Shown: positions 1 through 36,301, counted from the first letter of the stretch. The stretch: DNA of 40,453 nucleotides from Acidobacteriota bacterium (GCA_021296535.1 JAGWAG010000012.1:10152-50604); one strand, 5' to 3'. Numbers and translations: made by a program. Notes: generated from the letters alone by a model not told the origin.

Positions 1-1872
1 CGGGCTCGGCCGGACCGAGAACTCGAAGTCGAGGCCTCGGATGCGGGCGTTGGCCGCGTTCTCGACCACCGAACGATCCGGGTAGAGCACGGCCACTTGG
101 AGGTCGTCGTAGTCGTAGTGGAAAGCCGCTGCGTTGATGCGCACCTTCCGGTCGGCAACGGAGGACTTGATGCCGATTTCGAAACTGGTGACGGTCTCCT
201 CGTCGAAAGCGGGCTGGAGCGAAAGTGAGTTGTAACCGCCGCTCTTGTAACCGGCGGTCAACGCCCCGTACAGCATCACGTCGTCGCTGGGGCGAATCTC
301 GAGGCCCAGCTTGGGGGTCAGCGCGCTCCAACTGTCCTTCAGGACCTGAAGCTCCGGCAGGAAGGTCTGGAAATTGAGAGCGGCCTGGTCGTTCTCCTTC
401 TCGTCGGCGGTATAGCGCGCTCCGGTGGTCAGCGTGAGGCGGTCGCTCAGGTGCCAGTCGACCTGGCCGTACGCGGCGTAGAGTGACGAGTCGAGGTTCG
501 TCTCGAACGGCAGCGGCGTCACGACTCCGGGCAGGGGCAGGCCGAGGAAAGGCGCCACGGCGTTGTAATAGTTCGGCCCGCACAGGAACGGAGGCGCCAG
601 GATGCCGAGAGAGCAGTAGTTCGTCGGGTCGAACAGGAACGTCTGCGGACTGTTCGCGAACAGCCAGACGCCGAGCAAGGCCGTGTCGGTGATGTTGTCG
701 AGCTGTGTTCGGCTCTCCTCGCTGAAGGCGTACGCCCCGGCCACCCAGTTGGCACGCTCGTTGGCGCCATGGAACTGGAATTCCTGAGACCACCACTGGG
801 ATCCGAAGGTGCCCGAGTTGGTGATGAAGGCGTTGGGAGAAGCGTCGATGTCCGTGTCGCGCATCGAATCGAACTCACGCCAACTGCTGATCGACGTGAA
901 GCTCGTGCCGCCCGCCATCGCCTTGTTCACGTTCAGCGAGAAGCCGGACTCTTCGTAGCGTGACGCAGGCGTGGTGTCCGTGGAGATGCGGTGGATGTCG
1001 TCCGGGTCGGAGTAGCCGTAGAAACGGTTCAGGGTCCCCACTGTGCTGTAGGGGGACACGTCGAACGGCTTGAAGGGAAAGTTCGCGTGCGCATCGTCGT
1101 CCGTGCTGTCGGCCCGAATCGTGAAGGTCAGGGAGTCCGAGGGCAGGAAGGTGAGCGCGCTCCGGAGCGTCACGCCGTCGAAGTTGTCGGCGCTGGCGTC
1201 CAGGAAGTCGTTGTAGGTGGGGTCCTCGACCTGGGCGGTGGCGCCGGTGAAGCGTGCCCAGACCTTCCCCGACACGGGACCGGTGAGCGTCAGACCGTAG
1301 CGGCGTCCCTCGGCCGACTCGCTGGAGTCGAACTCGGAGAGGGATGTGAAGAGGCGCCCATGGAATTCGCTCTCCGGCGCCCGGGTGATCACGTTGACCG
1401 CCCCGGCAGTCGAGTTCCGTCCCCAGAGCGTGCCTTGGGGGCCGCGCAGGACCTCGATTCGCTCCAGGTCGAGGAATGGGTTCACCGCCGCCTGCGGCCG
1501 CGGCATGTAGATGCCGTCCACGTAGTAGCCGACCGTCGGCTCGGTGCCGATGCCGAGCGTGCTCGAGCCGATGCCGCGGATGTAGATGGCGACTTCGCCC
1601 GTGGTCGGGCTCTGGCCCGAGATGACGACGCCGGGGGCGGCCTCCGCCAAGGCGTGGATATCGCCGATCGCCTGCCGCTCAAGTTCCTCGCCCGAACGGG
1701 TGACGATCGAGATCGGCACGTCCTGGATCGCCTCCTCGACGCGTTGGGCGGTGACCGTGATCTCGTCGGTGACGGTCGAATCCGGCTCATCCGGTTCCTG
1801 CGCGACCGCGCCGATGGCGACGAGCGGCAACAGGGCGCAGACGACCAACGGGGCGACAGGAGTAGAGCGCAT
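1..1872 (-). CDS. TonB-dependent outer membrane receptor (3' end runs off the left edge)
   Basis: Not in the ORF track because it has no stop inside the window; translated by hand from ATG at 1872. Signal peptide MRSTPVAPLVVCALLPLVAIGAVA, TonB-box-like DEITVTAQR, plug motifs IYIRGIG, VGYYVDG and LERIEVLRGPQGTLWGRNSTAGAVNVIT, then barrel strands (YAAYGQVDW, GYKSGGYN, FEIGIK). Confidence 0.93.
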   Translation of the reverse strand, partial: MRSTPVAPLVVCALLPLVAIGAVAQEPDEPDSTVTDEITVTAQRVEEAIQDVPISIVTRSGEELERQAIGDIHALAEAAPGVVISGQSPTTGEVAIYIRGIGSSTLGIGTEPTVGYYVDGIYMPRPQAAVNPFLDLERIEVLRGPQGTLWGRNSTAGAVNVITRAPESEFHGRLFTSLSEFDSSESAEGRRYGLTLTGPVSGKVWARFTGATAQVEDPTYNDFLDASADNFDGVTLRSALTFLPSDSLTFTIRADSTDDDAHANFPFKPFDVSPYSTVGTLNRFYGYSDPDDIHRISTDTTPASRYEESGFSLNVNKAMAGGTSFTSISSWREFDSMRDTDIDASPNAFITNSGTFGSQWWSQEFQFHGANERANWVAGAYAFSEESRTQLDNITDTALLGVWLFANSPQTFLFDPTNYCSLGILAPPFLCGPNYYNAVAPFLGLPLPGVVTPLPFETNLDSSLYAAYGQVDWHLSDRLTLTTGARYTADEKENDQAALNFQTFLPELQVLKDSWSALTPKLGLEIRPSDDVMLYGALTAGYKSGGYNSLSLQPAFDEETVTSFEIGIKSSVADRKVRINAAAFHYDYDDLQVAVLYPDRSVVENAANARIRGLDFEFSVRPSP

Positions 1873-2014
1873 GTGCGGGTACCTTTCGAGACTCTGGGCC
1901 GGCGCGCCTGGAACCTCGCGTTCGTAGATTGTCTGAAGATCTCAGGCTACAACAAACGGGACTACGGGCGGGAGGTCGTCCAGGTTGCGGGTGGCCGGCA
2001 TCGGCTCCCTGCCG

Positions 2015-2020
2015 TAGACT
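2015..2020 (+). promoter_or_regulatory. Putative -10 hexamer TAGACT, 7 nt upstream of the GTG start (leaderless-type)
   Basis: TAGACT-cccggcg-GTG, with no SD; the same arrangement recurs at several genes in the window. Confidence 0.5.
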
Positions 2021-2027
2021 CCCGGCG

Positions 2028-3320
2028 GTGTTCGCAGCGTCTTCTTACGATCTGATCGTGATCGGCGCCGGCCCGGGCGGCTCGGCGGCCGCGGCGATTG
2101 CGGCCCGCGGGGGCCTGCGCACGTTGCTGCTCGAGCGGGAACCCGTGCCGACCTTCAAGATCGGCGAGTCCCTGATGCCGGACACGCACGGCGTGTTCGA
2201 GAAGATGGGGGCGCTGGAGCGGATGAAGAGCAGCCACTTCGTGGAGAAGCACTCGGTGCAGTTCTTCACCAGGACGGGCAAGGCGTCCATGCCGTTCTAC
2301 TTCGAGAAGGAAAGGCCGGGAGACGACAGCGCCCGGACCTGGCAGGTGCGCCGCTCGGAGTTCGATCAGCTCCTGATGGAGACGGCCGCCGGGCAGGGCG
2401 CCGAAGTACACCGCGGGGTCAACGTCCGGGACGTGCTCTTCGAGGACGGTCGGGCGCTCGGCGTACGCGTCACGGCCGCGGACAGCGGGGGCCCAGTGGA
2501 GCTCGTGAGCCGGGTCGTCATCGACGCCACCGGCCAGAGCGCGTTGCTGGCACGACGGCTCGACCTGGGCCGTGTGGACTACGGCCTGCGACACGCCTCG
2601 ATCTACACCCATTTCCGCGGCGCGATCCGGGACGAGGGGAAGGACGAGGGCGCGACCCTGATCCTGCACACGGAGTCCGGCGAATGCTGGTTCTGGTACA
2701 TCCCGCTGGCCGGGGATGTGGTCAGCGTCGGGGTCGTCGGACCGATGGATGCCCTGGTTCGAAACCGTGACGGCAGACCGCACGAGATCTTCTTCGAGGA
2801 AGTCGGGAACTGTGCGGAGATCGAACGCCGGATCGCTCCAGCCCACCAGTGCCGTCCGGTGTCCGTGATGAAGGACTTCTCCTATCGGATCGACAAGATG
2901 GCGGGTGACGGCTGGATCGCGATCGGCGACGCGTTCTCCTTCATCGACCCCGTGTACTCGTCCGGCGTGTTCCTGGCTCTCAAGTCCGGCGAGATGGCGG
3001 CGGAAGCGTCGATCGATGCGATCGCCGCCGGTGATGTCTCGGGTGAACGGCTGGGAGCGTTCCAGCCACTTCTGATGCGCGGCGTCGAGGCGGTACGTCA
3101 GTTGGTCAATGTCTTCTACGACCCGAACTTCAGCGTCGGTTCGTTTCTGCGGCTGTATCCCCAGCACCAGAGCAAGGTGACTCGCATCCTGATCGGCGAC
3201 GTGTTCGAAGTGGATTTCACCTCCATGTTCGAGGACATGGCGGCGTTCGCCGCGGCCGGGGGCGGCAAGACCGTTCCGCCGGCGGTGGACCAAATGGCCC
3301 GGGCCGCACCCGCGTCCTGA
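2028..3320 (+). CDS. Flavin-dependent halogenase-like NAD(P)/FAD-dependent oxidoreductase (Trp_halogenase/geranylgeranyl reductase superfamily)
   Basis: YDLIVIGAGPGG FAD motif, KIGESL, FVEKHSVQF (position of the halogenase Lys), WFWYIP (WxWxIP), GDAFSFIDPVYSSGV. Start moved from the track's 1929 to GTG 2028, just before the Rossmann motif. Confidence 0.85.
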   Translation: MFAASSYDLIVIGAGPGGSAAAAIAARGGLRTLLLEREPVPTFKIGESLMPDTHGVFEKMGALERMKSSHFVEKHSVQFFTRTGKASMPFYFEKERPGDDSARTWQVRRSEFDQLLMETAAGQGAEVHRGVNVRDVLFEDGRALGVRVTAADSGGPVELVSRVVIDATGQSALLARRLDLGRVDYGLRHASIYTHFRGAIRDEGKDEGATLILHTESGECWFWYIPLAGDVVSVGVVGPMDALVRNRDGRPHEIFFEEVGNCAEIERRIAPAHQCRPVSVMKDFSYRIDKMAGDGWIAIGDAFSFIDPVYSSGVFLALKSGEMAAEASIDAIAAGDVSGERLGAFQPLLMRGVEAVRQLVNVFYDPNFSVGSFLRLYPQHQSKVTRILIGDVFEVDFTSMFEDMAAFAAAGGGKTVPPAVDQMARAAPAS

Positions 3321-3352
3321 CCGGCGTCTGAACGGGGAACGAGGCGGAGTCC

Positions 3353-3637
3353 ATGGCGACGACGGCGACTCGGCGGCTGGCGTACGCGACCCTGGCCGTC
3401 CTGTACCTGCTCCACAACGACCTCTGGTTCTGGTACGACGGAGACCGGTTCCTCGGGCTGCCGATCGGATTGACGTACCACCTCCTCTTCGCTGGCGCGG
3501 TCGTGCTGACCATGGCATGGCTGGTTCGTAGCGCCTGGCCGGTCGCCGAACTCGATCGCCTGGCGACCGGCTCCGGCTCGGCGCAAGCCGCGAACGGCGG
3601 TGAACGCGAGGCCAGGGCTCCCGAGGCCAAGGGATGA
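3353..3637 (+). CDS. Small two-TM membrane protein, DUF3311-like (symporter accessory subunit)
   Basis: LYLLHNDLWFW...LGLPIGLTYH pattern, two hydrophobic helices, SD GGAG, ATGA overlap with the SSS gene. Confidence 0.75.
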   Translation: MATTATRRLAYATLAVLYLLHNDLWFWYDGDRFLGLPIGLTYHLLFAGAVVLTMAWLVRSAWPVAELDRLATGSGSAQAANGGEREARAPEAKG

Positions 3638-5091
3638 CCCTCACGATCATCCTCGGCTATCTGCTGGCCGTGCTCCTGATCGGTGCGTGGAGCAGCCGGC
3701 GCCTGGCCGCAACGGGCGAGGACTTCTTCGTCGCCGGACGGACGATCGGTCCCTTCGTGCTCCTGATGACCCTGTTCGGCACCCACATGACGTCCTTCGC
3801 CTTGCTCGGCGCGTCGGCGGAGTCGTACCGGGTCGGGATCGGTGTGTTCTCCCTGATGGCGTCGTCCTCGGCGTTGATGGTGCCTATCGTGTTCTTCTTC
3901 GTCGGCACCCGGGTCTGGGCGGTCGGCAGCCGCCTGGGGCTTCTGACCCAGGTTCAGTTCGTTCGCGCCCGCTGGGGCTCCGACGGGGTCGGCCTGCTGC
4001 TGTTCGTCGTCCTCGTCGTGCTGCTGGCCCCCTACCTGCTGATCGGCGTGATGGGCGGCGGCATCACGCTCCAGCAGATCACCGACGGCGCCGCGCCGCC
4101 GTGGCTGGGCAGCTTGCTCATCTGCGGCGTCGTGATCGGCTACGTGACGAGCGGCGGTCTGCGCGGAACGGCCTGGGTGAACACCTTCCAGACCGGGATG
4201 TTCATGGTGCTCGGCGCCGTCACCGCGATCCTGATCGTCACGAAGCTGGGCGGCGTCGGCGCGGCGCTCGACCGGGTGGCCGCGAGCCGGCCGGATCTGC
4301 TGATTCGAGGCGACGCGATCGACCCGCTGCGGCTGCTCAGCTACACCCTGATCCCGTTGTCGGTGGGCACCTTTCCTCACATCTTCTCGCACTGGCTCTC
4401 CGCCCGGCAGGCGGCGACCTTCAAGGCCCCGATCGTGCTCTACCCGGTGTGTATCGCCGTGGTATGGATCCCGAGCGTGTTGTTGGGCGTGTTCGGGAAC
4501 ATCGACTTTCCGGGGCTCGAGGGGCCGGCGTCCAACTCCGTCCTGATTCGGATGATCGCCCTCTACACTCCCGATCTGCTCGCCGGGTTGCTCGGCGCCG
4601 GCGTCTTCGCCGCGATCATGTCGTCGCTCGACTCACAGTCGCTCTCCCTGGGCACGATGTTCACCCAGGACATCGTGCGCCACTACCGTTGGGGTGGCGA
4701 GCTCAGCGAGTCCCGCCAGATTCTGCTGGGCCGGCTGTTCGTCGTGGGCGTGGTGGCGGCCGTTTTCCTCGTTTCCCTGGTCGCTGAACGGAGCATCTTC
4801 GCGCTCTCGGTGTGGTCCTTCACCGGCTTTGCGTCGCTGTTGCCTGTCGTCATAGCAGCCCTCTACTGGCGTCGCAGCACGGCCACCGGCGCCGCCGCTG
4901 CGATCGTCACCGTGATCGTCCTCTGGATCTGGTTCTTTGTTCGCGGGGTCGGTCAGCCGGACTACAGCGTGGGCGGGACCGGCGTGATGCCGGTGGCGGT
5001 CATCTTCGCCGGCTCGGTCGCGGCGCTGGCTATCGGTTCCCTGCTCAGCAAACCGCCCGGTACCGAGCGGGTGGCGCGCTTTATCCCATGA
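3634..5091 (+). CDS. Sodium:solute symporter (SSS) family protein
   Basis: EDFFVAGRTIG, GGLRGTAWVNTFQ, FAAIMSSLDSQ and ALYWRR motifs; about 13 hydrophobic segments. Confidence 0.92.
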   Translation: MTLTIILGYLLAVLLIGAWSSRRLAATGEDFFVAGRTIGPFVLLMTLFGTHMTSFALLGASAESYRVGIGVFSLMASSSALMVPIVFFFVGTRVWAVGSRLGLLTQVQFVRARWGSDGVGLLLFVVLVVLLAPYLLIGVMGGGITLQQITDGAAPPWLGSLLICGVVIGYVTSGGLRGTAWVNTFQTGMFMVLGAVTAILIVTKLGGVGAALDRVAASRPDLLIRGDAIDPLRLLSYTLIPLSVGTFPHIFSHWLSARQAATFKAPIVLYPVCIAVVWIPSVLLGVFGNIDFPGLEGPASNSVLIRMIALYTPDLLAGLLGAGVFAAIMSSLDSQSLSLGTMFTQDIVRHYRWGGELSESRQILLGRLFVVGVVAAVFLVSLVAERSIFALSVWSFTGFASLLPVVIAALYWRRSTATGAAAAIVTVIVLWIWFFVRGVGQPDYSVGGTGVMPVAVIFAGSVAALAIGSLLSKPPGTERVARFIP

Positions 5092-6425
5092 CCGGCACCG
5101 ACCAGCCCCTACGAATCGCCTACCTGGCGGCAGGCGCCGGCGGCATGATCTGCGGAAGTTGCATTCACGACAACGCCCTCGTGCGCGCGCTCCAGCAACG
5201 AGGCCACAACGCGGTCCTGCTGCCGATCTACACGCCGCTGAGGACCGACGAGGAGAACGTCAGCTACGGCAGAGTCTTCTATGGCGCGGTGAACATCTAC
5301 CTGGAGCAGAAGCTGCCGCTCTGGAGCCGGGCGCCCGTGGGTCTGCGCCGGCTGCTGGACAATCCGCGTCTCCTGGCGCGAGTGACGCGTTCCGCGGCAG
5401 CGACGGACGCCCGCGAGCTGGGGGAACTGGCCCTCTCCATGGTGCGCGGCGAGGCGGGACGCCAGCTCGCGGAGCTCCAGGGTCTCGCCAAGTGGCTCGG
5501 GGACGAGTTCCAGCCCGATGTCGTTCACCTGACGAACTCCATGCTCCTGGGCATGGTCCACCACCTTCGCGAAGTGCTGCCTCGAGCGCTCATCGTTTGC
5601 GGCCTCCAGGGCGAGGACATTTTCCTCGAGGACCTGGAGGACCCCCACAGGTCGGAGGTCCTTGCCGAAATGCGGACCCGGGTTCGCGAGGTCGACGTCC
5701 TCGTCGCGCCGAACGAGTACTACGCGGCGACGATGACCAAGCTGCTCGACCTGCCGCCGTCCCGCATCGACGTAGCCCGTCTCGGGATCGACCTCGAAGG
5801 TCACGGAAACCGCACCGCGGAACCCGCGGAGTCGCCGCTGATCATGGGGTACCTGGCCCGGATGTGTCCCGAGAAGGGCTTCCATCTCGCGGCTGAGGCG
5901 TTCAAGGAACTGAGCGATCGTCTCGGGCCCGGGCGCGTCCGCTTCCGTGCCGCGGGCTACCTGGGAGGCCGCGATCGGGTGTACTTCGAACTCCAGCGGC
6001 GGCGCATCGCCGACTGGGGCCTGGAACCCCACTTCGAGTGGCTCGGCGAGGTGGACCGGCAGCAGAAGATCGATCTCCTTCACGGTGTGCACGTGCTCGT
6101 CCTGCCGACGGTCTACCGGGAGGCGAAGGGATTGCCGGCGCTCGAGGCAATGGCGAACGGCGTACCGGCCGTTCTGCCCGACCACGGCGCGTTTCCCGAG
6201 ATGCTCGAGATGACCGGAGGCGGCACGCTGGTGCCGGCCGGCGACGTGTCGGCGTTGGCGAGCGCGGTCGAGGAGTTGGGCTCCGATGCGGATCGCAGGG
6301 CCCAGCTCGGGCGCTCGGGCCTCCAGGGCGTGCGGAGGCACTACACAGCCCAGTTGATGGCCTCAGACACGCTCGCGTCGTACCGCCGGGGCCTGAGTCG
6401 ACGAGCGGCGGGTGCCGCTACCTGA
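5088..6425 (+). CDS. Glycosyltransferase family 4 (GT-B) with an N-terminal CGSC motif
   Basis: ATG 5088 overlaps the SSS stop (ATGA); LRIAYLAAGAGGMICGSCIHDN, YLARMCPEKG, EAKGLPALEAMANGVP (E-x7-E). Confidence 0.9.
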   Translation: MTGTDQPLRIAYLAAGAGGMICGSCIHDNALVRALQQRGHNAVLLPIYTPLRTDEENVSYGRVFYGAVNIYLEQKLPLWSRAPVGLRRLLDNPRLLARVTRSAAATDARELGELALSMVRGEAGRQLAELQGLAKWLGDEFQPDVVHLTNSMLLGMVHHLREVLPRALIVCGLQGEDIFLEDLEDPHRSEVLAEMRTRVREVDVLVAPNEYYAATMTKLLDLPPSRIDVARLGIDLEGHGNRTAEPAESPLIMGYLARMCPEKGFHLAAEAFKELSDRLGPGRVRFRAAGYLGGRDRVYFELQRRRIADWGLEPHFEWLGEVDRQQKIDLLHGVHVLVLPTVYREAKGLPALEAMANGVPAVLPDHGAFPEMLEMTGGGTLVPAGDVSALASAVEELGSDADRRAQLGRSGLQGVRRHYTAQLMASDTLASYRRGLSRRAAGAAT

Positions 6426-6440
6426 GCCGGTCAGGAACTT

Positions 6441-6478
6441 GCGCGGCAGAAACTGGGGGCGCCGGCCGTCTGGCCGGC
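6441..6478 (+). repeat. REP-like palindromic repeat, copy A
   Basis: gcgcggcagaaactgggggcgccggccgtctggccggc matches 36155..36192 at 34 of 38 positions; hairpin gccggcc-gtct-ggccggc. Confidence 0.8.
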
Positions 6479-6483
6479 CGCGC

Positions 6484-6489
6484 TAGCAT
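6484..6489 (+). promoter_or_regulatory. Putative -10 hexamer TAGCAT, 9 nt upstream of the ATG
   Basis: TAGCAT-ctcgccgcg-ATG, no SD. Confidence 0.4.
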
Positions 6490-6498
6490 CTCGCCGCG

Positions 6499-7200
6499 AT
6501 GACTGACGCGCTCCACTTCGATTCCGTCACGAAGTCCTACGAGACGGAGGCCGGGGTCGTCGAGGTCCTGCGGGGCATCTCGGTGGCGCTGGGCGCGGGG
6601 GAGGCTATGGCGGTAACCGGTCCCTCGGGCAGTGGCAAGAGCACTCTCCTGCACCTCGCCGCGACGCTCGAGGCGCCGACGTCCGGCAGCATCCGGATTG
6701 CGGGCCAGGCCGCCCACGACTTACCCGAACGGGAACTGGCGGCGTTTCGTAGCCGGAGTGTCGGCCTGGTGTTCCAGGATCACTATCTGCTGCCGCAGTA
6801 CACGATGCTGCAGAACGTACTTCTTCCTACCGTGGCCGCTGGTGGCGGCGGGGACGGAGGAGAGGAGCGGGCCCGGAGCCTGCTCCAGGCCGTCGGCCTC
6901 GGTACGCGCATCGACCACCGACCAGCGCAGCTCTCGGGGGGAGAGAGGCAGCGAGCGGCCATCGTGCGCGCACTGATCAACCGGCCGAGTCTGCTCCTTT
7001 GCGACGAACCGACCGGCAACCTGGACGCGGAGACCGCCACGTCCGTGGCCGACCTGCTCCTCGACCTCCACGCCGAAGGCGACAGCGCCCTGATCGTGGT
7101 CACTCACAGTCTGGAGCTGGCCGCGCGCCTGCCGCGGCAGGTAGAGCTGCGGGGAGGACTGCTCAGCGAAGCGCCGCCACGACAGGCGGCCGGAGGCTGA
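6499..7200 (+). CDS. ABC transporter ATP-binding protein (LolD/MacB-type)
   Basis: Walker A GPSGSGKST, Q-loop VFQ, signature LSGGERQR, Walker B LLCDEPTGNLD, H-loop VTH. Confidence 0.95.
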   Translation: MTDALHFDSVTKSYETEAGVVEVLRGISVALGAGEAMAVTGPSGSGKSTLLHLAATLEAPTSGSIRIAGQAAHDLPERELAAFRSRSVGLVFQDHYLLPQYTMLQNVLLPTVAAGGGGDGGEERARSLLQAVGLGTRIDHRPAQLSGGERQRAAIVRALINRPSLLLCDEPTGNLDAETATSVADLLLDLHAEGDSALIVVTHSLELAARLPRQVELRGGLLSEAPPRQAAGG

Positions 7201-7204
7201 AGCC

Positions 7205-10200
7205 GTGAGTGCGGCCAGGCCCGGCGGACCCCTGCCCAGTCTGCGGCACTACTGGCGCTCCAACGTCGCCGTCGTGCTGACTGCCGCCGTCGCGGCGTCC
7301 GTGCTCACCGGCGCCCTGATGGTTGGCGACTCGGTGCGAGGAAGCCTGCGCGACCTGACCCTGGACCGGCTCGGCGGTATCGACCATGCCCTGCTCGGCG
7401 CCGGTTTCTTTCGGGAGGGCTTGCGGGACGAGCTGGCGGAGGATTCAGAGTTCGGGTCCCGCTACGGGTTGGTATCGGCGGCAATCCTGATGCAGGGGAG
7501 CATGGTGGACCCCGAGAGCGGCCGGCGCGCCGCGCGGATCAACGTCCAGGGGATCGACGACGCCTTTGCCGCGTTCTTCCGGGGCACCGAAGAGGCTCTC
7601 GACCTGTCCCGGCGCGACGGTCAACTGTTCGCGTCGATCGCGGTCAACCGATCGCTCGCCTCGTCTCTTGCGGTCGACGAGGGCGACTCCGTTCTGCTCT
7701 ACCTGGAACGGCCGAGTGAAGCCCCGCGCGCCAGCCTGATGGGAGAAAAGGACCCCGCGGACCAGTTGGAGAGCGTGCGGCTCAGCGTGGTGTCGGTGCT
7801 GGAAGACGTCGGCGCGGGTCGGTTCCAACTCGCCCCGCACCAGAGCCAGCCGCTGGTTGCCTATCTCCGCCTGCGCGACCTCCAGCGGGAACTCGATCGC
7901 CGCAACCTCGCCAACACGTTGCTGGTGGGGGAACGAGCGAGGACCGGTTCCGGCCCGGTGGCTGACCCGGAGGCTGACCCGGAGGCCTCGGCAGCCGATG
8001 TCGAGCGCCGCATCCGTTCCCAGGCCGAAGTGGCCGATTTCGGGCTCACCCTCGAGGCGACGGACGATCACCTGCTCGTGACGACATCCCAGATCATTCT
8101 CGGTGCCGAGTTGGCCCGGGAAGTTCAGGCCGCGGCCTCGGAGGTTGGCGCGGAGACGATCGAAGTCTCGACCTATCTGGCCAATCGGGCCGCGGCCGAC
8201 AGCGGCGCGGCCGCTCCGTACTCGACGATCACGGCACTTGATGTGGCCCGCGCTGGTGAAATTGGCGTCCTGCGTCTGACGGACGGCCGACCGGCTCCCG
8301 GGCTCGGGCGTGGTGAAGTGCTGGTCAATTCGTTCCTGGCCGAAGATCTCGCGGTCGGAGCGGGCGACCGGCTGGCAATCGACTACTTCCAGCTTGGCGA
8401 CCGGGAGCAGTTGATCGAACAGACCGTCGAGACCACGGTGGCCGGGGTCGTCGAGATGAGGGATTGGGGCGTCGACCGAACGCTGACACCGGACTTTCCC
8501 GGCGTCGCCGACGCGGACAACATGAGCGACTGGGATCCGACCTTCCCGGTCGATCTGAGCCGGATACGGGATCAGGACGAGGCCTACTGGGACGAGTTCC
8601 GCGCCACCCCCAAGCTCTTCGTCGGTCTGGACTACGGCGCCGGGCTCTGGTCGAGCCGGTTCGGCCACCTGACCTCCCTGCGACTTCTGCCGCCGACGGG
8701 CATGACACCGGCGGAGCTCCGGGAGACGCTCGAAGAAGGGTTGCCGGACCGGGTCGCGCTCCACGCGGCAGGCCTCGCGGTGGAGCCGGTCAAGGCCAGG
8801 GGCCTGCGCGGCGCCGCGGGGGCAACGGACTTCGGCGGCCTCTTCGTGGGTTTCAGCCTCTTTCTCATCGTGTCGGCGGCGTTGCTGGTGGGGCTCTTCT
8901 TCCGCCTGGGAACGGAGGGCCGCGCGAACGAGATGGGACTTCTGCTGGCGCTTGGCTACGGTGTCGTGCGGGTCCGGCGCCGCTTCCTGGTCGAGGGGGC
9001 CCTGCTGGGCGGCGGCGGCGTGATTCTCGGCCTGGCCGGTGCGGTGCTCTATGCCGGCGCGATGATGGCCGCACTGCGGACCCTGTGGCGCTCCGCGGTC
9101 GGCTCGAGTCACCTCTATCTGCACGTCGAACCCCTGACGCTGGTGTCGGGCGGCGCGGCATCCGTTCTGGTCGTGCTGTTCGCGATCCGGGGCGCCGTCG
9201 GTCGCCTTGCCGCGGTCTCGCCGATCCGGCTGCTGCGCGGAGAGACATCGGATCCGCCGCCTGCCGCCCGCGCAAAGGGGCGACGGGCCCGATGGACCGC
9301 GAGCGTCGGCGGCGGGATCGCCGCGGTGCTTCTCGGCGCCTCAGCGGCGGCGCCGGCGTCCATCGCTGCCTACCTGTTCTTCGGCGGCGGCGCCTGCCTC
9401 CTGATCGCCGGCCTGGCGGGTTTTGTGCTCTGGCTCCGGAAGCGTCCGGCGGCGCCGCTCGAGAGCTGGTCCTTGCGGGCCGGTTCAAGGATGGCCGCGG
9501 CCAACGCGTCCCTGAATCCGGGCCGGAGTCTGCTCTGTGCGGCCCTGGTAGCCAGCGCATCGTTCGTGATCGTCGCCGTCGGCGCCTACGGTTTGCGCTT
9601 CGGCGAGGAAACACGCGCCCTGGACTCGGGCGCCGGCGGCTTCGACCTGGTAGCGGAGGCGGACGTTTCGATTCTGGCCGATCTCACCACGGTGGATGGC
9701 CGGTACGATCTGGGTTTCGGGGAAGAGGCGTCCACGCTCATCGGACAGAGCCAGGTTGTCGCCTTCCGGACCGTGCCCGGCGACGACATCAGTTGCCTGA
9801 ACCTCTTCCAGCCGGAACGACCGCGGTTGCTGGGAGCGCCACCGGAGTTGATCGAGCGGGGCGGCTTCAGGTTCCAGGCGCTCGCGGAGAACGCGGGGGA
9901 TGAGCCTTGGAGACTGCTGGAAGAGGATCTCGGGCCGGGAGTCATTCCCGCGATCGGCGACTTCAACTCGGTCATGTGGATCCTGCACTCGGGGCTGGGG
10001 CAGGGGATCGAGATCGAAACCGAACGCGGAGACACCCTGGAACTCAGGCTGGTCGGGCTGCTTCGCAAGAGCGTCTTCCAGAGCGAGCTGGTGATCTCCG
10101 AAGCGAACCTGGCGAAGCACTTCCCGAGCCGCACCGGTGCCTCCTACTTCCTGCTGCGGACGCCGCCGGGCGAGCAGGACCGCACGATGCAGGAACTGGA

Positions 10201-10657
10201 ACGCACGCTCGGCGGCTTCGGCTTCGACGCAGTTCCCACAGCCCAGCGCCTGCAGGCTTTCCAGGCCGTCGAGAACACCTACCTCGGCACCTTCCAGACC
10301 CTTGGCGGACTCGGCCTGCTGCTGGGCACGCTGGGGCTGGCGGTCGTCCTGCTGCGGAACCTGCTCGAACGCCGCGGCGAGCTGGCCACCATGCAGGCGA
10401 TCGGATTCTGGCGACGAGCGCTCGCCTGGCTCGTCGTGGCCGAGAACGGCCTGGTCCTGACCGCGGGAGTTGCCGTCGGCGCCGCCTCGGCGCTGGTCGC
10501 GGTGAGCCCGCACCTGCTCGGAGGCCACGCGCTGGTGCCGTGGCTCTCCCTCGCCCTCACCCTGCTTCTGGTCATGGCGGCCGGAACGCTGGCCAGCCTG
10601 GCCGCGGTTCGTCGGGTCACACGCGAGGAACTGCTGCCGGCGCTCCGCGGTTCCTAG
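7205..10657 (+). CDS. Large FtsX/MacB-type ABC permease with two tandem permease units
   Basis: N-terminal TM followed by GDSVRGSL, a large periplasmic domain, FtsX-like RANEMGLLLALG, a second periplasmic domain and a second FtsX-like ERRGELATMQAIGF; adjacent to a LolD-like ATPase. Confidence 0.9.
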   Translation: MSAARPGGPLPSLRHYWRSNVAVVLTAAVAASVLTGALMVGDSVRGSLRDLTLDRLGGIDHALLGAGFFREGLRDELAEDSEFGSRYGLVSAAILMQGSMVDPESGRRAARINVQGIDDAFAAFFRGTEEALDLSRRDGQLFASIAVNRSLASSLAVDEGDSVLLYLERPSEAPRASLMGEKDPADQLESVRLSVVSVLEDVGAGRFQLAPHQSQPLVAYLRLRDLQRELDRRNLANTLLVGERARTGSGPVADPEADPEASAADVERRIRSQAEVADFGLTLEATDDHLLVTTSQIILGAELAREVQAAASEVGAETIEVSTYLANRAAADSGAAAPYSTITALDVARAGEIGVLRLTDGRPAPGLGRGEVLVNSFLAEDLAVGAGDRLAIDYFQLGDREQLIEQTVETTVAGVVEMRDWGVDRTLTPDFPGVADADNMSDWDPTFPVDLSRIRDQDEAYWDEFRATPKLFVGLDYGAGLWSSRFGHLTSLRLLPPTGMTPAELRETLEEGLPDRVALHAAGLAVEPVKARGLRGAAGATDFGGLFVGFSLFLIVSAALLVGLFFRLGTEGRANEMGLLLALGYGVVRVRRRFLVEGALLGGGGVILGLAGAVLYAGAMMAALRTLWRSAVGSSHLYLHVEPLTLVSGGAASVLVVLFAIRGAVGRLAAVSPIRLLRGETSDPPPAARAKGRRARWTASVGGGIAAVLLGASAAAPASIAAYLFFGGGACLLIAGLAGFVLWLRKRPAAPLESWSLRAGSRMAAANASLNPGRSLLCAALVASASFVIVAVGAYGLRFGEETRALDSGAGGFDLVAEADVSILADLTTVDGRYDLGFGEEASTLIGQSQVVAFRTVPGDDISCLNLFQPERPRLLGAPPELIERGGFRFQALAENAGDEPWRLLEEDLGPGVIPAIGDFNSVMWILHSGLGQGIEIETERGDTLELRLVGLLRKSVFQSELVISEANLAKHFPSRTGASYFLLRTPPGEQDRTMQELERTLGGFGFDAVPTAQRLQAFQAVENTYLGTFQTLGGLGLLLGTLGLAVVLLRNLLERRGELATMQAIGFWRRALAWLVVAENGLVLTAGVAVGAASALVAVSPHLLGGHALVPWLSLALTLLLVMAAGTLASLAAVRRVTREELLPALRGS
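7960..7986 (+). repeat. 12-bp in-frame tandem duplication (ADPE-ADPE) in a permease loop
   Basis: ggctgacccgga twice, followed by ggc. Confidence 0.8.
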
Positions 10658-17021: not shown

Positions 17022-17584
17022 TGGCGAACGGACCCACGCGACTGTGGATGGGGCTGGCTCTGGGCTCGGTGCTGATCGTAGGACTGAGCGCCGGCCTGCT
17101 GGCGGACCGGCTCCTGGCTGAGCGCCAGGTAGTTGATGTCGAGCAGGCGGCTCCGGAGAAGACCAGAGACGCCCACCCACCGACGTTCCACTTCGATTGT
17201 CCCGACTCGGAAGCGACTCCCGCCGCGACGACCCGGAACGCCGATTCGCAGGAGCATCTGGACGCGGCTCGTTCCGAGGAATTCCGGAAGCACCGATCGA
17301 GGACGACCCGTCGCATGGCGCGGCGTCTGGATCTCGAAGCTGAGCAGGTCGAGGCGCTCGAAGCGATCGTCGAACAGGCGATGTTGAGGGGGCTCCGGTA
17401 CTGGAGCGGCGCGCGCGACGAGTTCTGCTCCATGCAGCGTGAGTTCCACAGGCAGGTGAGCGAGTTGCTCAGCCCCGATCAGGCCGTTCGCTTCGACGAG
17501 ATGCGGCTCGAGTTGACGGAACGGGGCCGGCGCCACCGGGGTCGGAACGACGGCGATCACCGTGAGTCGGGAGAGTGCCACTGA
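17018..17584 (+). CDS. Membrane-anchored periplasmic helical protein (Spy/CpxP/CnrX-like)
   Basis: N-terminal TM, MARRLDLEAEQ and LLSPDQAVRFD (LTxxQ-like repeats), two mid-protein Cys; third gene after ECF and anti-sigma. Confidence 0.6.
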   Translation: MMANGPTRLWMGLALGSVLIVGLSAGLLADRLLAERQVVDVEQAAPEKTRDAHPPTFHFDCPDSEATPAATTRNADSQEHLDAARSEEFRKHRSRTTRRMARRLDLEAEQVEALEAIVEQAMLRGLRYWSGARDEFCSMQREFHRQVSELLSPDQAVRFDEMRLELTERGRRHRGRNDGDHRESGECH

Positions 17585-20500
17585 TGACAACGGAGGAACA
17601 CGTGGACGCGCGGACAGGTTCGTCCCAGAATCCGGAGCGGCCGGAGTCGTCTCCGCCGGAGGTCGAGGCGCACCGCCACGTCCACCCGCTCATCCGCTTC
17701 GCGGTAGAGCGCAGGGTGACGATGTTCATGGCGACCCTGGGCGTGCTGGTGCTCGGCTGGCTGTCCCTTACCCGGCTGCCGCTGGAGTTCCTGCCCCTTT
17801 TCCAGTCGTCCAACATCTCGGTCCGGGTGCCCTACCAGTCGTCCTCTCCGGAGGAGGTCGCACGGTCGATCGTCTGGCCCCTCGAAGACAGCCTGGGGAC
17901 GATCAACGGCGTCCGGCTGCTTCGCTCACGGGCCAGCGGCAACTCGGCCTCGGTCGACATCGAGTTCCAGGACGGGACGGACATGGAACTGGCGGCCGTC
18001 GACGTCCGCGACCGGATCGACCGCGTGCGCAACGAACTGCCCAGCGACGTGGAGCAGGTCTACGTCCGCCGTTTCGAGAGCACCGACATTCCGGTTCTCC
18101 GCAGCAGTCTCAGCGCGACCTGGACGCAGGACGAGCTGAACGACTTCGTGGAGGACGTACTCCTGCCGCGGATCGAGCGGCTGGAGGGCGTGGCGCAGGC
18201 TGAAGTCTGGGGCATGCTGAGCCGGGAACTGCGGATCGAGTTGCTGCCCGACCGCATGGCAGCGCACGGTGTGGACATTCGTGAGCTACGCCAGGTCCTT
18301 CAGAGCAACCACGTCAACGTGTCGGGCGGGTACCTGCGCGAGGGGAGCCGCCGCCTGCTGGTGCGGACCGTCGGCGAGTTCCGAACGCCCGACGAGATCC
18401 GGCGCCTGCCGATCCGCGGCGATGGCCTGCGGGTGGCCGATATCGCCGACGTGAAGTTCGGCTATCCGGACAAGTACGAGTACAGCTTCCTCAATGGGAC
18501 CGAGGCGATCAGTCTGAGCGTGAACAAGGCCTCCGACGCGAATCTGCTGGATGTCGTCAACCGGGTCAAGGAGGAGTTGGAGGCGATCCGGCAGACGCCC
18601 GAGGGCGAAGGCCTCGAGTTCCGCCACTTCCACGACACCTCGGTCGACGTGCGCCAGGGGCTGACGGAGCTGGGCCGTAGCGGCCTCATTGGCGGCGGTC
18701 TGGCGATCGTCTTCATGTTCCTCTTCCTTAGGAAGTTCCGGACCACGCTGTTGGTGGCCCTTGCGGTTCCGCTCTCCCTGGTCATGACCTTCGTCATGAT
18801 GTACCTCGGCCGGCAGGCCGGAGTCACCGAGATCACGCTGAACGTGATGAGCCTGATGGGGCTGATGCTCGCGATCGGGATGCTCCTCGACAACTCGATC
18901 GTGGTCATCGAGTCGATCTTCCGTCACCGTCAGGAACTCGGCGCCAGTGCGAAGGAAGCCGCCCTGCGCGGCGCCAGCGACGTCGCGATGCCGATCATCT
19001 GCTCGACGATGACCACGATGTGCGTGTTCGTGCCGCTCATCTTCTTCGGCAGCGGCGGCGGCGGGCCAGGCAGCTTCTCGCGCTTCATGGGCGACATCGG
19101 CACGACCGTGTGCGTGGTCATGCTCGGGTCCCTGGTCATCTCCCTGACCGTGGTGCCCATGATCGCGGCGATCCTGCTCAAGTCGGAGAGCAAGCGCCGG
19201 TTCAAGCTCCTCGACCGGATCAGCGAGTGGTACGGGGCGACGCTGGGCTTCACCCTGCGCCACCGCTTCGTGTTCACGGTGGTGATCGGCACGCTGCTCT
19301 ACGGTTCCTGGGAGCTGTACAACAGCATCGAGCGGAGTTTCAACCAGCCGTCCCAGGGCAGGGCGCTGACCATCTTCGTCGACACGCCGCGGCAGATGGG
19401 AATGGACGATCGCCTCGCCCTTTACGACGAGGTCTACACGCTGCTCGATTCCAGGCGCGACGAGTGGGAAATCGCCGACATCGCCCACGAGGTGCGCCGG
19501 GGCGGCGGCCGCAGCCGGGGATACGGCGGCGGCAACCGCTTCGAGGTCTATCTCAAGCCGGAGGAGGTCTCGGAGCTTTCCACGGACGAGGTCACGGAGC
19601 TCATCCGGGAGGCGATGCCGCAGCGGGTGGGCGTGCTGTTCAAACTCGCCCGCACCGAGTTCGGGCCGCCGGGTTCGGGGAGATCCGGAATCGAGGTGGA
19701 ACTGATCGGCGACGACATGGGCACACTCGAGCTCCTGGTGCCGCGAATCACCCAACGGCTGCGCCAGATTCCCATCGTCGGCGATATCGACAACTCGTTC
19801 GAGAGCGGCGACGACGAGATCCGGGTGTCGGTGAACCGCGAGCGGGCGCTCCAGGGCGGCCTGTCGAGTCAGGCGGTGGCGATGACGGTCAACGGAGCGC
19901 TGTCAAGCCGTTCGCTGGCGTACTTCAAGACCGCGGAGCGCGAGATCGGCATGGTCATGCAGTACCGCGAGGAGGACCGCGAGACGCTCGATCAGTTGCG
20001 GAAGATGCCGGTCCTCGTGTCGGACCCGAACGGCGAGTCGGGAGGGGTCACCCTGCCGATATCGAGCCTGGCCTCGTTCCAGGTCCAGAGCGGCCCGTCC
20101 GAGGTCGAGCGTGAGAATCGCCGCGCCAAGGTGGAGATTGACGCGACGGCCGCTGGCGGTGTCCCGGGCTTCATGCTGCGGCGGCCGGTCCAGATGGCTC
20201 TTGCCGACGTGCCGCTGCCGCCGGGCTACGAGTGGTCGCTCGGCAGGAGGTTCATGGAGGCCGAGGAGGACGCATCGCGCGCCGTCCTGGCGATGATCCT
20301 CGCCGTCGTGCTGATCTACATGATCATGGCGGCCCTGTTCGAGGACTTCCTCCAGCCCTTCACGATCATGCTGTCGATTCCCTTCGCCTTCATCGGTGTC
20401 GGCCTGATCATGTACCTCGCCGGCCAGCCGAGGGACGACTCGTCGAACATGGGGCTTCTCATCCTGGCCGGAATCGTGGTGAACAACGCGATCGTCCTGA

Positions 20501-20847
20501 TCGACCACATCAATCGACTGCGCCGCGAGGGCCTCTCCCGCTACGACGCGATCGTCCTGGGCGGCAAGCACCGGTTGCGGCCGATCCTGATGACGGCGGT
20601 CACGACGATCCTGGGCCTGTCGCCCATGGTCGCGCCGTTCTTCCTGCCCGAAGTGTTCGGGCAGCCCGAGGGTCGGGCGGCCTTCTGGGCGCCGGTGGGT
20701 CTCGTGATTCTGGGCGGTCTGACCACCTCGACCTTCCTGACTTTGCTCGTGATTCCGACGGTCTATTCCCTGGTCGATGACGTGAAGCTCTTCGTCCAGC
20801 GGGTTGTGCGAGCGGCAGTCGCCGTTCCGCGGAGAAAGATGGCATGA
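17584..20847 (+). CDS. RND efflux transporter permease subunit 1 (AcrB/MdtB-like)
   Basis: About 1087 aa; RLPLEFLP, GMLLDNSIVVIE (TM4), GIVVNNAIVLID (TM10), RLRPILMT, GGLTTSTFLTL; TGATG overlap with the upstream gene. Confidence 0.95.
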   Translation: MTTEEHVDARTGSSQNPERPESSPPEVEAHRHVHPLIRFAVERRVTMFMATLGVLVLGWLSLTRLPLEFLPLFQSSNISVRVPYQSSSPEEVARSIVWPLEDSLGTINGVRLLRSRASGNSASVDIEFQDGTDMELAAVDVRDRIDRVRNELPSDVEQVYVRRFESTDIPVLRSSLSATWTQDELNDFVEDVLLPRIERLEGVAQAEVWGMLSRELRIELLPDRMAAHGVDIRELRQVLQSNHVNVSGGYLREGSRRLLVRTVGEFRTPDEIRRLPIRGDGLRVADIADVKFGYPDKYEYSFLNGTEAISLSVNKASDANLLDVVNRVKEELEAIRQTPEGEGLEFRHFHDTSVDVRQGLTELGRSGLIGGGLAIVFMFLFLRKFRTTLLVALAVPLSLVMTFVMMYLGRQAGVTEITLNVMSLMGLMLAIGMLLDNSIVVIESIFRHRQELGASAKEAALRGASDVAMPIICSTMTTMCVFVPLIFFGSGGGGPGSFSRFMGDIGTTVCVVMLGSLVISLTVVPMIAAILLKSESKRRFKLLDRISEWYGATLGFTLRHRFVFTVVIGTLLYGSWELYNSIERSFNQPSQGRALTIFVDTPRQMGMDDRLALYDEVYTLLDSRRDEWEIADIAHEVRRGGGRSRGYGGGNRFEVYLKPEEVSELSTDEVTELIREAMPQRVGVLFKLARTEFGPPGSGRSGIEVELIGDDMGTLELLVPRITQRLRQIPIVGDIDNSFESGDDEIRVSVNRERALQGGLSSQAVAMTVNGALSSRSLAYFKTAEREIGMVMQYREEDRETLDQLRKMPVLVSDPNGESGGVTLPISSLASFQVQSGPSEVERENRRAKVEIDATAAGGVPGFMLRRPVQMALADVPLPPGYEWSLGRRFMEAEEDASRAVLAMILAVVLIYMIMAALFEDFLQPFTIMLSIPFAFIGVGLIMYLAGQPRDDSSNMGLLILAGIVVNNAIVLIDHINRLRREGLSRYDAIVLGGKHRLRPILMTAVTTILGLSPMVAPFFLPEVFGQPEGRAAFWAPVGLVILGGLTTSTFLTLLVIPTVYSLVDDVKLFVQRVVRAAVAVPRRKMA

Positions 20848-22409: not shown

Positions 22410-22443
22410 TCCGACTCCGGAGTTCCTGACCAGGTAACACAAC

Positions 22444-34137: not shown

Positions 34138-34158
34138 CCGTTCACTATACTGCCGGCA
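34138..34158. promoter_or_regulatory. 21-bp bidirectional promoter with overlapping TATACT (+) and TATAGT (-) -10 hexamers
   Basis: cat-ccgttcactatactgccggca-atg: TATACT 34146-34151 is 7 nt from ATG 34159; TATAGT (complement of 34144-34149) is 6 nt from ATG 34137. Confidence 0.65.
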
Positions 34159-36132: not shown

Positions 36133-36154
36133 GGATGGATCGAGCCAGCAGAGT

Positions 36155-36232
36155 GCGCGGCAGAAACCGGGTGCGCCGGCCTTCCGGCCGGCATCCGGCG
36201 CGAAGCGCCGGCTTCCGGACCTTCTGCCGCGC
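36155..36232 (+). repeat. REP-like composite palindromic element, copy C (78 bp)
   Basis: Perfect 11-bp outer inverted repeat gcgcggcagaa/ttctgccgcgc enclosing hairpins gccggcc-ttcc-ggccggc and ccggcgc-gaa-gcgccgg. Confidence 0.8.
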
Positions 36233-36301
36233 CAGGAGATGACGACGCCATTGCATCTCGCATGAACGGACCCACGCGGTCCCGACTCCGGAGACAAAGA
36301 C

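Follow-up and report, generated by a model that had tools for sequence, protein, structure and literature searches.

What does a bacterium make with a flavin-dependent halogenase whose gene sits among transport and sugar-transfer genes? Such halogenases are usually tied to the carrier proteins of nonribosomal peptide synthetases (NRPS) or polyketide synthases (PKS) in a few producers, whereas here one lies in a compact operon with a symporter, a GT4 glycosyltransferase and an unusual ATP-binding cassette (ABC) transporter. The operon was found in a stretch of 40,453 nucleotides from an Acidobacteriota bacterium (GCA_021296535.1, JAGWAG010000012.1:10152-50604), hereafter the window, which has a G+C content of 65-70% and whose close public relatives are metagenome-assembled genomes of Thermoanaerobaculia (Acidobacteriota), many labelled 'Candidatus Multivorans'. 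Six plus-strand genes at 2028-10657, for the halogenase, a small DUF3311-like membrane protein, an SSS symporter, the GT4 enzyme, an ABC ATPase and a giant FtsX-type permease, diverge from a minus-strand gene for a TonB-dependent receptor, an arrangement which a first-pass annotation of the sequence had described and which the open reading frames (ORFs) and junctions confirm. Our preferred answer, to which we give slightly less than an even chance, is that a co-inherited pathway would halogenate and glycosylate a 4-hydroxybenzoate-type aromatic acid and export the resulting derivative.

A halogenase-type flavoenzyme

The first-pass annotation had weighed a halogenase against a geranylgeranyl reductase for the first gene of the operon, and the comparison favors the former. 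The 430-residue protein (2028-3320, plus strand) is encoded in an ORF that opens at TTG 1929, with GTG 2028 as its probable start. Searches of the PDB returned 8zop as the best match (8.7e-58), followed by Mpy16 (5buk), CndH (3e1t), PltA (5dbj), Bmp2 (5bva), ChlB4 and CmlS, down to 2.7e-41. These halogenases scored 145-199 bits, compared to 64 bits (E 1.5e-16) for digeranylgeranylglycerophospholipid reductase. NCBIfam models gave the same ranking, with CmlS at 181.7 bits against 121.7 for GG-red-SF and 59.7 for MenJ, although neither the CmlS match nor any other match of a cluster protein reached a curated NCBIfam cut-off.

We aligned the enzyme with 36 relatives from outside its own family, drawn from several phyla, numbering residues from GTG 2028. 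All three motifs that the first-pass annotation had named could be located: GxGxxG as GAGPGG (13-18), its glycines kept in 34 of 34 ungapped relatives; WxWxIP as WFWYIP (221-226), with W, W, I and P invariant in 37/37; and FxDPxxSxG at 305-313. The catalytic lysine that it had also invoked is sound if K74 ('FVEKHS') was meant, as this residue is kept in all 34 sequences covering the site and aligns with CndH K76 (in 'FPIKRGG', a number counted from a printed alignment); if K44 in 'FKIGES' was meant, the wrong lysine was chosen, that position being variable (H/K/Q). By sequence, the flavoenzyme is thus a halogenase-type protein that groups with halogenases rather than with geranylgeranyl reductases.

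The enzyme shares GxGxxG, the lysine, WxWxIP and FxDPxxSxG with the carrier-dependent 'variant B' halogenases CndH, PltA, Mpy16, Bmp2 and CmlS, which it matches over nearly its full length at E 1e-41 to 1e-52. It is short in comparison to CmlS, lacking the C-terminal domain of that protein (the match spans CmlS 4-328 of 570). Unlike CndH- and PltA-type systems, the window cluster contains no carrier protein, NRPS or PKS; as the first-pass annotation had stated, Pfam and NCBIfam scans of positions 1-10657 found no synthase, carrier protein or flavin reductase. One flavin reductase (PF01613) is encoded elsewhere in the genome (C14:15962-16402). The CoA ligase and thioesterase genes found in related clusters, described below, suggest that the substrate is CoA-bound or a free acid.

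Relation to BaaA and BaaB

The closest studied relative of the halogenase comes from Planctomycetales strain 10988. Over 94% of its length, the window enzyme shares 47% identity with the product of L041:9989-11254, the sole halogenase homologue in the complete genome of that strain (E<=1e-5). Directly 5' of this gene lies one for a 183-residue protein with a marginal Pfam match to PF01947, 'Rv2949c-like chorismate pyruvate-lyase' (E 0.005). A profile built from seven of its homologues detected the DUF98 structure 2nwi (E 4.7e-4), and Foldseek searches with its AlphaFold model (pLDDT 90.4) returned 2nwi (TM-scores of 0.67-0.78) and the E. coli chorismate lyase UbiC (1g81, E 5e-6). In strain 10988, BaaA and BaaB were proposed to make 3,5-dibromo-4-hydroxybenzoate on the way to the isolated compound 3,5-dibromo-p-anisic acid (bioRxiv 10.1101/723874). 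As set out in the accessible text of this preprint by Panter et al., the pathway consists of BaaA, BaaB and an unlinked O-methyltransferase, and no knockout or assay is reported there (bioRxiv 10.1101/723874). From position, uniqueness and the published description, we infer that the L041 lyase-like gene and halogenase are BaaA and BaaB. The first-pass annotation had called the window locus an undescribed system; the halogenation step, however, is not wholly undescribed, its closest studied relative being BaaB, the putative 4-hydroxybenzoate brominase paired with the lyase BaaA.

A lyase gene lies within 1 kb 5' of the halogenase in six loci (from Planctomycetota, one Lentisphaerales and one genome labelled Deferribacteres), and in a seventh only 4HBT and PaaK genes separate the two. 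Upstream of BaaA/BaaB, strain 10988 carries genes for an adenylating enzyme, an ALDH-like protein, FeADH, a propeller, a HemN-like radical S-adenosylmethionine (SAM) protein, a GcvH-like protein, a cyclase-like protein and a DUF116/polyprenyl synthase fusion. Its DUF3311-SSS-GT4-4HBT genes are about 172 kb from BaaA/BaaB, and its giant permease gene is 1.2 Mb away. Strain 10988 thus keeps all the modules, though dispersed, which indicates that the published two-gene baa locus belongs to the same larger gene set. The baa locus and the window contig have the upstream block of FeADH, propeller and HemN-like radical SAM genes in common; they differ in that no lyase gene adjoins the window halogenase, which instead shares one operon with a symporter and a GT4 gene, with a receptor gene upstream.

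The suggestion in the first-pass annotation that the substrate could be made elsewhere finds support in the genus of the window. The lyase profile has clear matches (E 1e-26 to 1e-47) in each of the four remaining genomes of the genus, where the matching gene lies amid housekeeping genes at a distance of 300-430 kb from the halogenase. The aromatic scaffold can therefore be made in the cell.

Several further features of lyase and baa-type loci were observed. In two complete genomes of the genus the lyase match falls in two pieces inside one 325-residue frame (G197:C1:3220706-3221287 and G187:C1:696101-696679), and in G237 it lies at the end of a 626-residue frame that starts with RNase D-like domains. 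A secreted bacterial-globin-like protein is encoded between a lyase-like gene and an MFS transporter gene upstream of GT4 in two Planctomycetota loci, at L110:7673-8161 (labelled Gemmataceae) and L111:8042-8464. The GcvH-like protein of strain 10988 (L041:3503-3955, between the HemN-like radical SAM and cyclase-like genes) is of lipoyl-carrier type and a possible carrier; no gene of this type was seen on the window's contig.

Co-inheritance in Acidobacteriota

We profiled 251 sampled Acidobacteriota genomes with cut-offs of E<=1e-80 for the permease, E<=1e-70 for GT4 and E<=1e-90 for the halogenase, the last of which drops five genomes having only a weaker paralogue (32-40% identity). The permease was present in 76 genomes and GT4 in 74, every one of which also has the permease. 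Among the 60 genomes with the halogenase, all 60 have the permease and 58 have GT4, the two exceptions being 75% and 83% complete. Omitting the unpublished genomes G153, G050 and G025 leaves the permease in 74, GT4 in 72 and the halogenase in 58 of 248. GT4 and permease genes lie within 15 kb of each other in 54/74 genomes, as do halogenase and GT4 genes in 38/58; the remaining pairs are far apart or on separate contigs. Of 161 genera, 42-49 show this pattern. GT4 and permease form the invariably co-inherited core, which the halogenase accompanies often but not always.

The larger cluster and its recurrence across phyla

The six window genes belong to a conserved cluster of larger size. Upstream of the receptor, the same contig carries genes for a glyoxalase/epimerase fusion, two PQQ_2-type propellers with signal peptides, FeADH, a third propeller and a HemN-like radical SAM protein. 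The six-gene set of the first-pass annotation thus amounts to only part of a cluster that includes this upstream FeADH-propeller-radical SAM block, which lies outside the window. Searches with the halogenase and with a GT4 alignment yielded 135 loci, 93 of them outside the window's family, and family representatives were compared against all of them by tblastn; all locus counts are conditional on recovery through the halogenase or GT4.

Other genomes, also from other phyla, carry the six genes together and in one place, which clearly contradicts the absence of co-occurrence that the first-pass annotation had named as its refutation. The recurring order is receptor, [PaaK-like ligase], halogenase, DUF3311, SSS, GT4, [five-transmembrane membrane protein], [4HBT thioesterase], ATPase and permease, with brackets marking optional genes. 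It was found in 14 loci outside the window's family: 2 from Gemmatimonadota, 8 from other Acidobacteriota, 3 from Latescibacterota and 1 unclassified. The six proteins of L037 and L050, the two loci that were directly compared, share 34-62% identity with those of the window, and FeADH and radical SAM genes often lie upstream in relatives. Within the window's own family (42 loci) the six genes are syntenic, and the ligase, thioesterase and five-transmembrane protein are never in the cluster. Recurrence in other phyla and a shared phylogenetic profile take the arrangement far beyond what chance would produce.

Among the 93 loci outside the family, several genes follow the halogenase. The receptor occurs in 21/43 loci with a halogenase against 3/50 without one, the radical SAM gene in 21/43 against 2/50, FeADH in 15/43 against 2/50, and the PaaK-like ligase in 13/43 against 0/50. 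SSS, the five-transmembrane protein and the thioesterase instead track GT4, and GT4 and the five-transmembrane protein are adjacent in 53 loci. In some Planctomycetota an MFS transporter takes the place of SSS upstream of GT4. The first-pass annotation had pointed to a similar gene set in Planctomycetes and Verrucomicrobia, sometimes with prenyltransferase genes; prenyl-type genes do lie beside the halogenase or GT4 in Planctomycetota, while the Verrucomicrobia side is represented by one Lentisphaerales locus.

Two functional readings of cluster genes found no support. Two upstream genes in relatives gave only weak AMP-binding and Aldedh matches when considered as a LuxC/LuxE fatty-aldehyde system, and for the radical SAM gene, considered as a ChuW-like heme degradation gene, HutW, STM4012, HemN and HemW score alike, all below cut-off, which allows no assignment.

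Two gene neighborhoods stood out in the survey. On contig C136 of the window's genome (G000:C136:50000-66000, L138), a PaaK-like ligase gene lies beside CofD, CofC and an 838-residue CofG/H-like radical SAM fusion (F420-type cofactor genes), together with a luciferase-like monooxygenase, a DctM TRAP permease, an M16 peptidase and a propeller that is 50% identical to one adjoining the permease in Gemmatimonadota. In 25 loci, of Poribacteria type by the examples examined, genes for an ECF-type sigma factor and a 471-residue protein with no Pfam match follow the pair of GT4 and five-transmembrane genes (e.g. L076:12374-12970 and L077:13137-14552).

The GT4 glycosyltransferase

The GT4 gene (5088-6425, plus strand) encodes a protein with Pfam matches to Glycos_transf_1 and Glyco_transf_4 (86.3 and 44.8 bits), a GT-B fold with a Glycos_transf_1 C-terminal domain, and no hydrophobic segment. 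The E-x7-E region is represented by E345 and E353, the first kept in at least 90% and the second in all of 34 aligned sequences. In the same 34 sequences, from at least six phyla, both cysteines of a CGSC motif (C22 and C25) are invariant. The predicted structure (pLDDT 89.2) places C22 and C25 in the loop after strand beta-1 and at the start of the first helix, where other GT4s carry a glycine-rich motif, so that, judging from secondary structure, the cysteines may face the active-site cleft. A helical insert of about 90 residues (50-141) is modeled with lower confidence.

The nearest folds are BshA, GlgM and MshA, which use small soluble acceptors, with TM-scores of 0.68-0.83 to BshA. The window enzyme shares the GT-B fold and E-x7-E with BshA and MshA, yet scores only 48.7 and 46.4 bits with their NCBIfam models (cut-offs 273.7 and 462.5), has CGxC in place of glycine-rich loop residues, carries the 90-residue insert and is not accompanied by partner genes of a thiol pathway. 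A protein atlas search returned generic GT4 clusters only.

The ABC ATPase and giant permease

The ATPase (6499-7200, plus strand) belongs to the LolD/YbbA/MacB/DevA type, with NCBIfam scores of 238.7 bits for LolD, 192.4 for YbbA, 191.4 for FtsE, 190.9 for MacB and 159.7 for DevA, all below cut-off. The permease (7205-10657, plus strand; 1150 residues) matches Pfam FtsX at two sites (59.7 bits). Its hydropathy profile indicates about 10 transmembrane segments in two FtsX-like halves: the first segment (21-39) is followed by a loop of about 500 residues, and the pattern repeats at 776-1135, giving predicted periplasmic domains at about 40-540 (about 500 residues) and at 795-1031 (about 235 residues). 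The NCBIfam model ADOP scores 37.7 bits, far below cut-off, and comparison with solved structures found nothing beyond FtsX at E 0.0046.

We read the ATPase and permease, by their sequences, as a putative single-chain type VII ABC machine. Type VII systems (MacAB, LolCDE, FtsEX and YbbAP) likewise combine a LolD/YbbA-like ATPase with an FtsX-domain permease that has large periplasmic domains. The window permease is far larger than those of MacAB, LolCDE, FtsEX, YbbAP or DevBCA, and no membrane fusion protein accompanies it; the cluster contains no HlyD-type gene and has three genes for secreted beta-propellers upstream. The 'MacB-type' label of the first-pass annotation fits the class, but the layout is nearer to the single-chain, 10-transmembrane-segment layout of YbbP. 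For the E. coli YbbP complex with TesA, a role in pulling hydrophobic compounds out of the inner membrane has been described (PMC12646458, seen in part). A thioesterase gene adjoins the transporter genes in relatives of the window, as in YbbAP-TesA, although TesA is a periplasmic SGNH enzyme and the relatives' 4HBT thioesterase is a cytoplasmic hotdog protein with no signal peptide. Similarity to DevBCA is low, the DevC model scoring 25.8 bits against a cut-off of 290.35, and the cluster contains no DevB-like gene.

The receptor and the DUF3311/SSS symporter

The TonB-dependent receptor gene occupies 1-1872 on the minus strand, where the window holds its N-terminal 624 residues (Pfam Plug and TonB_dep_Rec_b-barrel); the full ORF, L136:9630-12023, extends beyond the window upstream on the contig and encodes 797 residues. 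In other lineages, a receptor family of about 700 residues, 41-53% identical across phyla, is encoded co-oriented just 5' of the halogenase or ligase in 24 loci. The window receptor is a different protein in opposite orientation, and scores only 41 bits against the L121 receptor. We therefore rejected it as an orthologous member of the cluster, the cluster-type receptors forming a family of their own. Selection thus seems to favor a receptor in this position, with that of the window a non-orthologous replacement.

The symporter (3634-5091, plus strand; 485 residues; Pfam SSF, 126.5 bits) has about 13 hydrophobic segments and NCBIfam scores of 137.6 bits for sss, 109.5 for PanF and 95.4 for PutP, all below cut-off. 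The gene directly 5' of it (3353-3637, plus strand) encodes a small DUF3311-like membrane protein with one hydrophobic segment, a probable symporter partner by its Pfam match (PF11755, E 4.9e-4, below cut-off). DUF3311-SSS pairs also occur in other phyla, and the MctP monocarboxylate permease locus of Sinorhizobium consists of such a pair in the portion of the source available (PMC9100948). The window shares with MctP the DUF3311 gene directly 5' of SSS, joined by an ATGA overlap, but the MctP model scores only 46.9 bits against a cut-off of 625.

We also considered whether receptor and symporter replace the lyase. Across the loci, 21 have the receptor, 7 have the lyase and 1 has both, and the receptor is found in 0/26 Planctomycetota loci; this split also tracks phylogeny. 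The idea was rejected for this genus on the grounds that the lyase is present in 4/4 other genomes of the genus and that strain 10988 has both lyase and SSS-GT4.

A proposed pathway

Gene content, motifs, co-inheritance and BaaB homology are established by the comparisons above, and from them we propose a substrate, an order of steps, a GT4 acceptor and a direction of transport. The succession of import, modification and export suggested in the first-pass annotation is likewise putative. An aromatic acid would be made from chorismate by the BaaA-like lyase encoded elsewhere in the genus or, alternatively, would enter the cell by way of the TonB-dependent receptor and the DUF3311/SSS symporter, which may supply precursor or recapture product. 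The BaaB-like halogenase, as a two-component enzyme using FADH2, O2 and bromide or chloride, would halogenate the ring ortho to the phenol, acting on the free acid or on a CoA thioester formed by a PaaK-like ligase (here on another contig), with its flavin reductase encoded elsewhere. GT4 would transfer a sugar from a nucleotide sugar to the small acceptor or to a partner molecule, and the LolD-like ATPase and 10-segment FtsX permease would move the amphiphilic product outward from the inner membrane or the periplasm. The upstream beta-propellers with signal peptides are possible periplasmic partners, and the upstream FeADH and HemN-like radical SAM proteins might tailor the molecule by reduction and C-methylation.

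A bolder version of the proposal, which we regard as doubtful, is that an unnamed envelope system in about 30% of the sampled Acidobacteriota and at least five further phyla serves a secreted-and-recaptured halogenated hydroxybenzoate-derived glycoconjugate in a siderophore- or signal-like cycle. Synthesis would take place in the cytoplasm, the type VII ABC machine would hand the product to the propellers, and receptor and symporter would retake the product or its cargo. The 3,5-dibromo-p-anisic acid of strain 10988 would then be a mere shunt product of a larger pathway.

Several observations weigh against the halogenated aromatic pathway. The chemistry of its members comes down to the correlation in strain 10988, in which BaaA and BaaB have never been knocked out or assayed, and the window's own assembly (86% complete) gave no match to the lyase profile. 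The ligase and the five-transmembrane homologue of this genome are unlinked to the cluster, on other contigs, as is a second adenylating enzyme, and searches of the genus found no 4HBT thioesterase of the cluster type. SSS transporters usually import, and strain 10988 carries both the lyase and the SSS-GT4 pair. Foldseek E-values are nearly flat across many GT4s, and the predicted acceptor class is therefore a leaning. GT4 and permease occur with no halogenase in 16 of the 76 permease-bearing Acidobacteriota genomes, a count which, like the other genome counts, comes from related, non-independent genomes and has no probability attached; in Poribacteria, 31/31 loci carry GT4 and the five-transmembrane protein with no halogenase within 10 kb. 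From these two cases, sugar transfer and export need not act on a halogenated substrate. Finally, next to the halogenase or GT4, Planctomycetota loci carry genes for a squalene-hopene-cyclase-like protein and a polyprenyl synthase/DUF116 fusion, pointing to a lipid part that the proposed pathway leaves unexplained.

Alternative explanations

Many of these observations would be accommodated if the locus were an envelope glycolipid system, a rather unlikely explanation in our estimation but the one that fares best among the alternatives. Here, the core of GT4 and type VII ABC machine, joined in relatives by the five-transmembrane protein and a YbgC-like thioesterase, would make a membrane glycolipid, possibly isoprenoid-based, and move it to the outer membrane, and the halogenase would be an optional branch that decorates it or supplies its head group in some lineages. 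Such a system might resemble DevBCA, which serves heterocyst glycolipids, or YbbAP in its extraction of hydrophobic compounds. The pairing of GT4 with the permease in 74/74 genomes favors this explanation, along with the halogenase-free genomes, the adjacency of GT4 and the five-transmembrane gene (including in Poribacteria), the exchange of SSS for MFS in Planctomycetota and the polyprenyl synthase/DUF116 and cyclase-like genes adjacent there. The ATPase scores with LolD, YbbA and DevA models are also consistent with it, as is the coupling of such a transporter with a thioesterase in YbbAP-TesA in the part of that work available (PMC12646458). However, the cluster contains no lipid synthase, acyltransferase or membrane fusion protein, the GT4 enzyme has no hydrophobic segment and resembles enzymes with soluble acceptors, DevC scores far below its cut-off, and the 4HBT protein, unlike TesA, has no signal peptide.

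It is also conceivable, though improbable, that the flavoenzyme acts in vivo not as a halogenase but as a hydroxylase or reductase in a pathway modifying quinones or prenylated aromatics, with lyase, polyprenyl synthase, a MenK-type HemN-like methyltransferase and thioesterase building or altering a prenylated hydroxybenzoate. The fold is common to geranylgeranyl reductases and UbiH-type hydroxylases, and GG-red-SF and MenJ models do score. Lyase, polyprenyl synthase and HemN-like radical SAM genes are neighbors in Planctomycetota, and MenK-type quinone methylation is carried out by HemN-like enzymes. Against this stand the invariant WxWxIP and catalytic lysine, which are marks of halogenases, the fact that all best matches are halogenases, and strain 10988, which yields a dibrominated hydroxybenzoate derivative and has this single halogenase homologue. 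In addition, no UbiA-type prenyltransferase was seen in the loci examined.

Just as improbable is a role in uptake and detoxification, in which an external, possibly halogenated aromatic acid would be imported, transformed by CoA chemistry and the flavoenzyme, and expelled as a conjugate via GT4 and the ABC machine. The receptor directly 5' of the halogenase in 24 loci of other lineages, its non-orthologous counterpart in the window's family, and its enrichment among halogenase loci would fit this role. So would the DUF3311-SSS pair, given its occurrence as a monocarboxylate permease locus in the portion of the Sinorhizobium work available (PMC9100948), and the PaaK-like ligase and 4HBT thioesterase, which resemble aromatic-acid catabolic enzymes. 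However, the cluster showed no genes for ring cleavage, dehalogenases or beta-oxidation, the halogenase has biosynthetic motifs, and the lyase is endogenous in the genus and within the cluster in Planctomycetota.

That the genes are unrelated neighbors linked merely by recent common descent is highly improbable: 38 syntenic loci do come from one family with 72-96% identity, and 7 relatives have kept the genes despite a restriction-modification insert between GT4 and the ATPase, but three other phyla show this gene order again, with 43-63% identity, and co-presence persists despite unlinking (20/58 halogenase/GT4 and 20/74 GT4/permease pairs), so that phylogenetic profile and recurring order contradict it.

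Boundaries, RNA contigs and neighboring genes

The tight packing reported in the first-pass annotation is evident at the junctions: DUF3311 and SSS genes share an ATGA overlap at 3634-3637, SSS and GT4 genes share another at 5088-5091, and the permease starts with GTG 4 nt past the ATPase stop. The gap between GT4 and ATPase genes is 73 nt. The 155-nt divergent intergenic spacer between receptor and halogenase genes (1873-2027), as read from the sequence, has no Rfam match and no sigma-70-like site, and promoter and terminator scans gave nothing above chance. Genes 3' of the permease (an S9 peptidase, a TPR protein, RND pumps and others) are unrelated, and the cluster therefore ends at 10657.

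RNA contigs of 150-300 nt with 91-99% identity cover parts of the receptor, halogenase, ATPase and permease genes. They are not proof of transcription, as strand and level are not readable from the contigs and carry-over of DNA is possible; the two libraries, X1 and X2, have identical tables and are possibly one data set. The symporter gene and most of the GT4 gene have no such cover, which proves nothing.

In relatives, the junction between GT4 and ATPase genes can hold an insert of 4-4.5 kb, as at L001:14671-19029 and at the same junction in L009, L015, L019, L021, L024 and L035. Of 38 loci of the window's family retrieved by the halogenase search, 7 have this insert, with the cluster genes retained. 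The L001 insert encodes an Eco57I/N6-type methylase, an N4/N6 methylase and a PLD-like protein and reads as a restriction-modification island. The gap of 73 nt in the window thus lies at a site of recurrent insertion. Elsewhere in the window, a gene for a HlyD-type fusion protein flanked by two AcrB-type RND pumps (17575-25758) is unrelated to the cluster, and a 1317-residue ORF on the minus strand (32350-36303) has no Pfam match and a third-position G+C of 0.76, lower than that of its neighbors.

Relation to published work and implications

Loureiro et al. describe orphan 'Halo_AMP' clusters in sponge-associated Acidobacteriota, Latescibacterota and Poribacteria, and name no product in the accessible part of the preprint (bioRxiv 10.64898/2026.08.03.742642). 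As far as that part extends, these clusters resemble the present one in having genes for a flavin halogenase, a phenylacetate-CoA-ligase-like protein, PQQ-like proteins, a glycosyltransferase, a thioesterase, radical SAM, TonB-dependent and ABC proteins (bioRxiv 10.64898/2026.08.03.742642). The class rule given there calls for an AMP-binding gene, of which we found none in the window cluster or the 12 kb upstream, the PaaK-like gene lying on contig C136; relatives such as L037, L050 and L112-L123 do combine halogenase and AMP-binding genes. The same part of the survey is without GT4-permease co-inheritance, a link to BaaA and BaaB, or occurrence outside sponges. Our own literature search found no description of co-inheritance of GT4, permease and halogenase, of a CGxC GT4 or of the giant permease, most subscription journals lying outside that search. 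What is in print is only BaaA/BaaB and the general Halo_AMP orphan class. We rate the gene set, whose members belong to known protein families, as a widely distributed orphan form of halogenated-aromatic biosynthesis that includes an unusual export module.

The set, inherited jointly in about a third of the Acidobacteriota sampled, is also found in Gemmatimonadota, Latescibacterota, Planctomycetota and others. As strain 10988 is cultured and carries all the modules, the question of what the pathway makes is directly testable. The permease would add to the type VII ABC permeases a new and very large member whose genetic partners are defined. If the proposed pathway is correct, the only planctomycete halogenated product known in 2019 would be placed within a larger, unrecognised pathway, small brominated aromatics in sponges and on algae would have a testable origin, and bacteria of soil, groundwater, the sea and sponges would halogenate simple aromatic acids far more commonly than the few known products imply.

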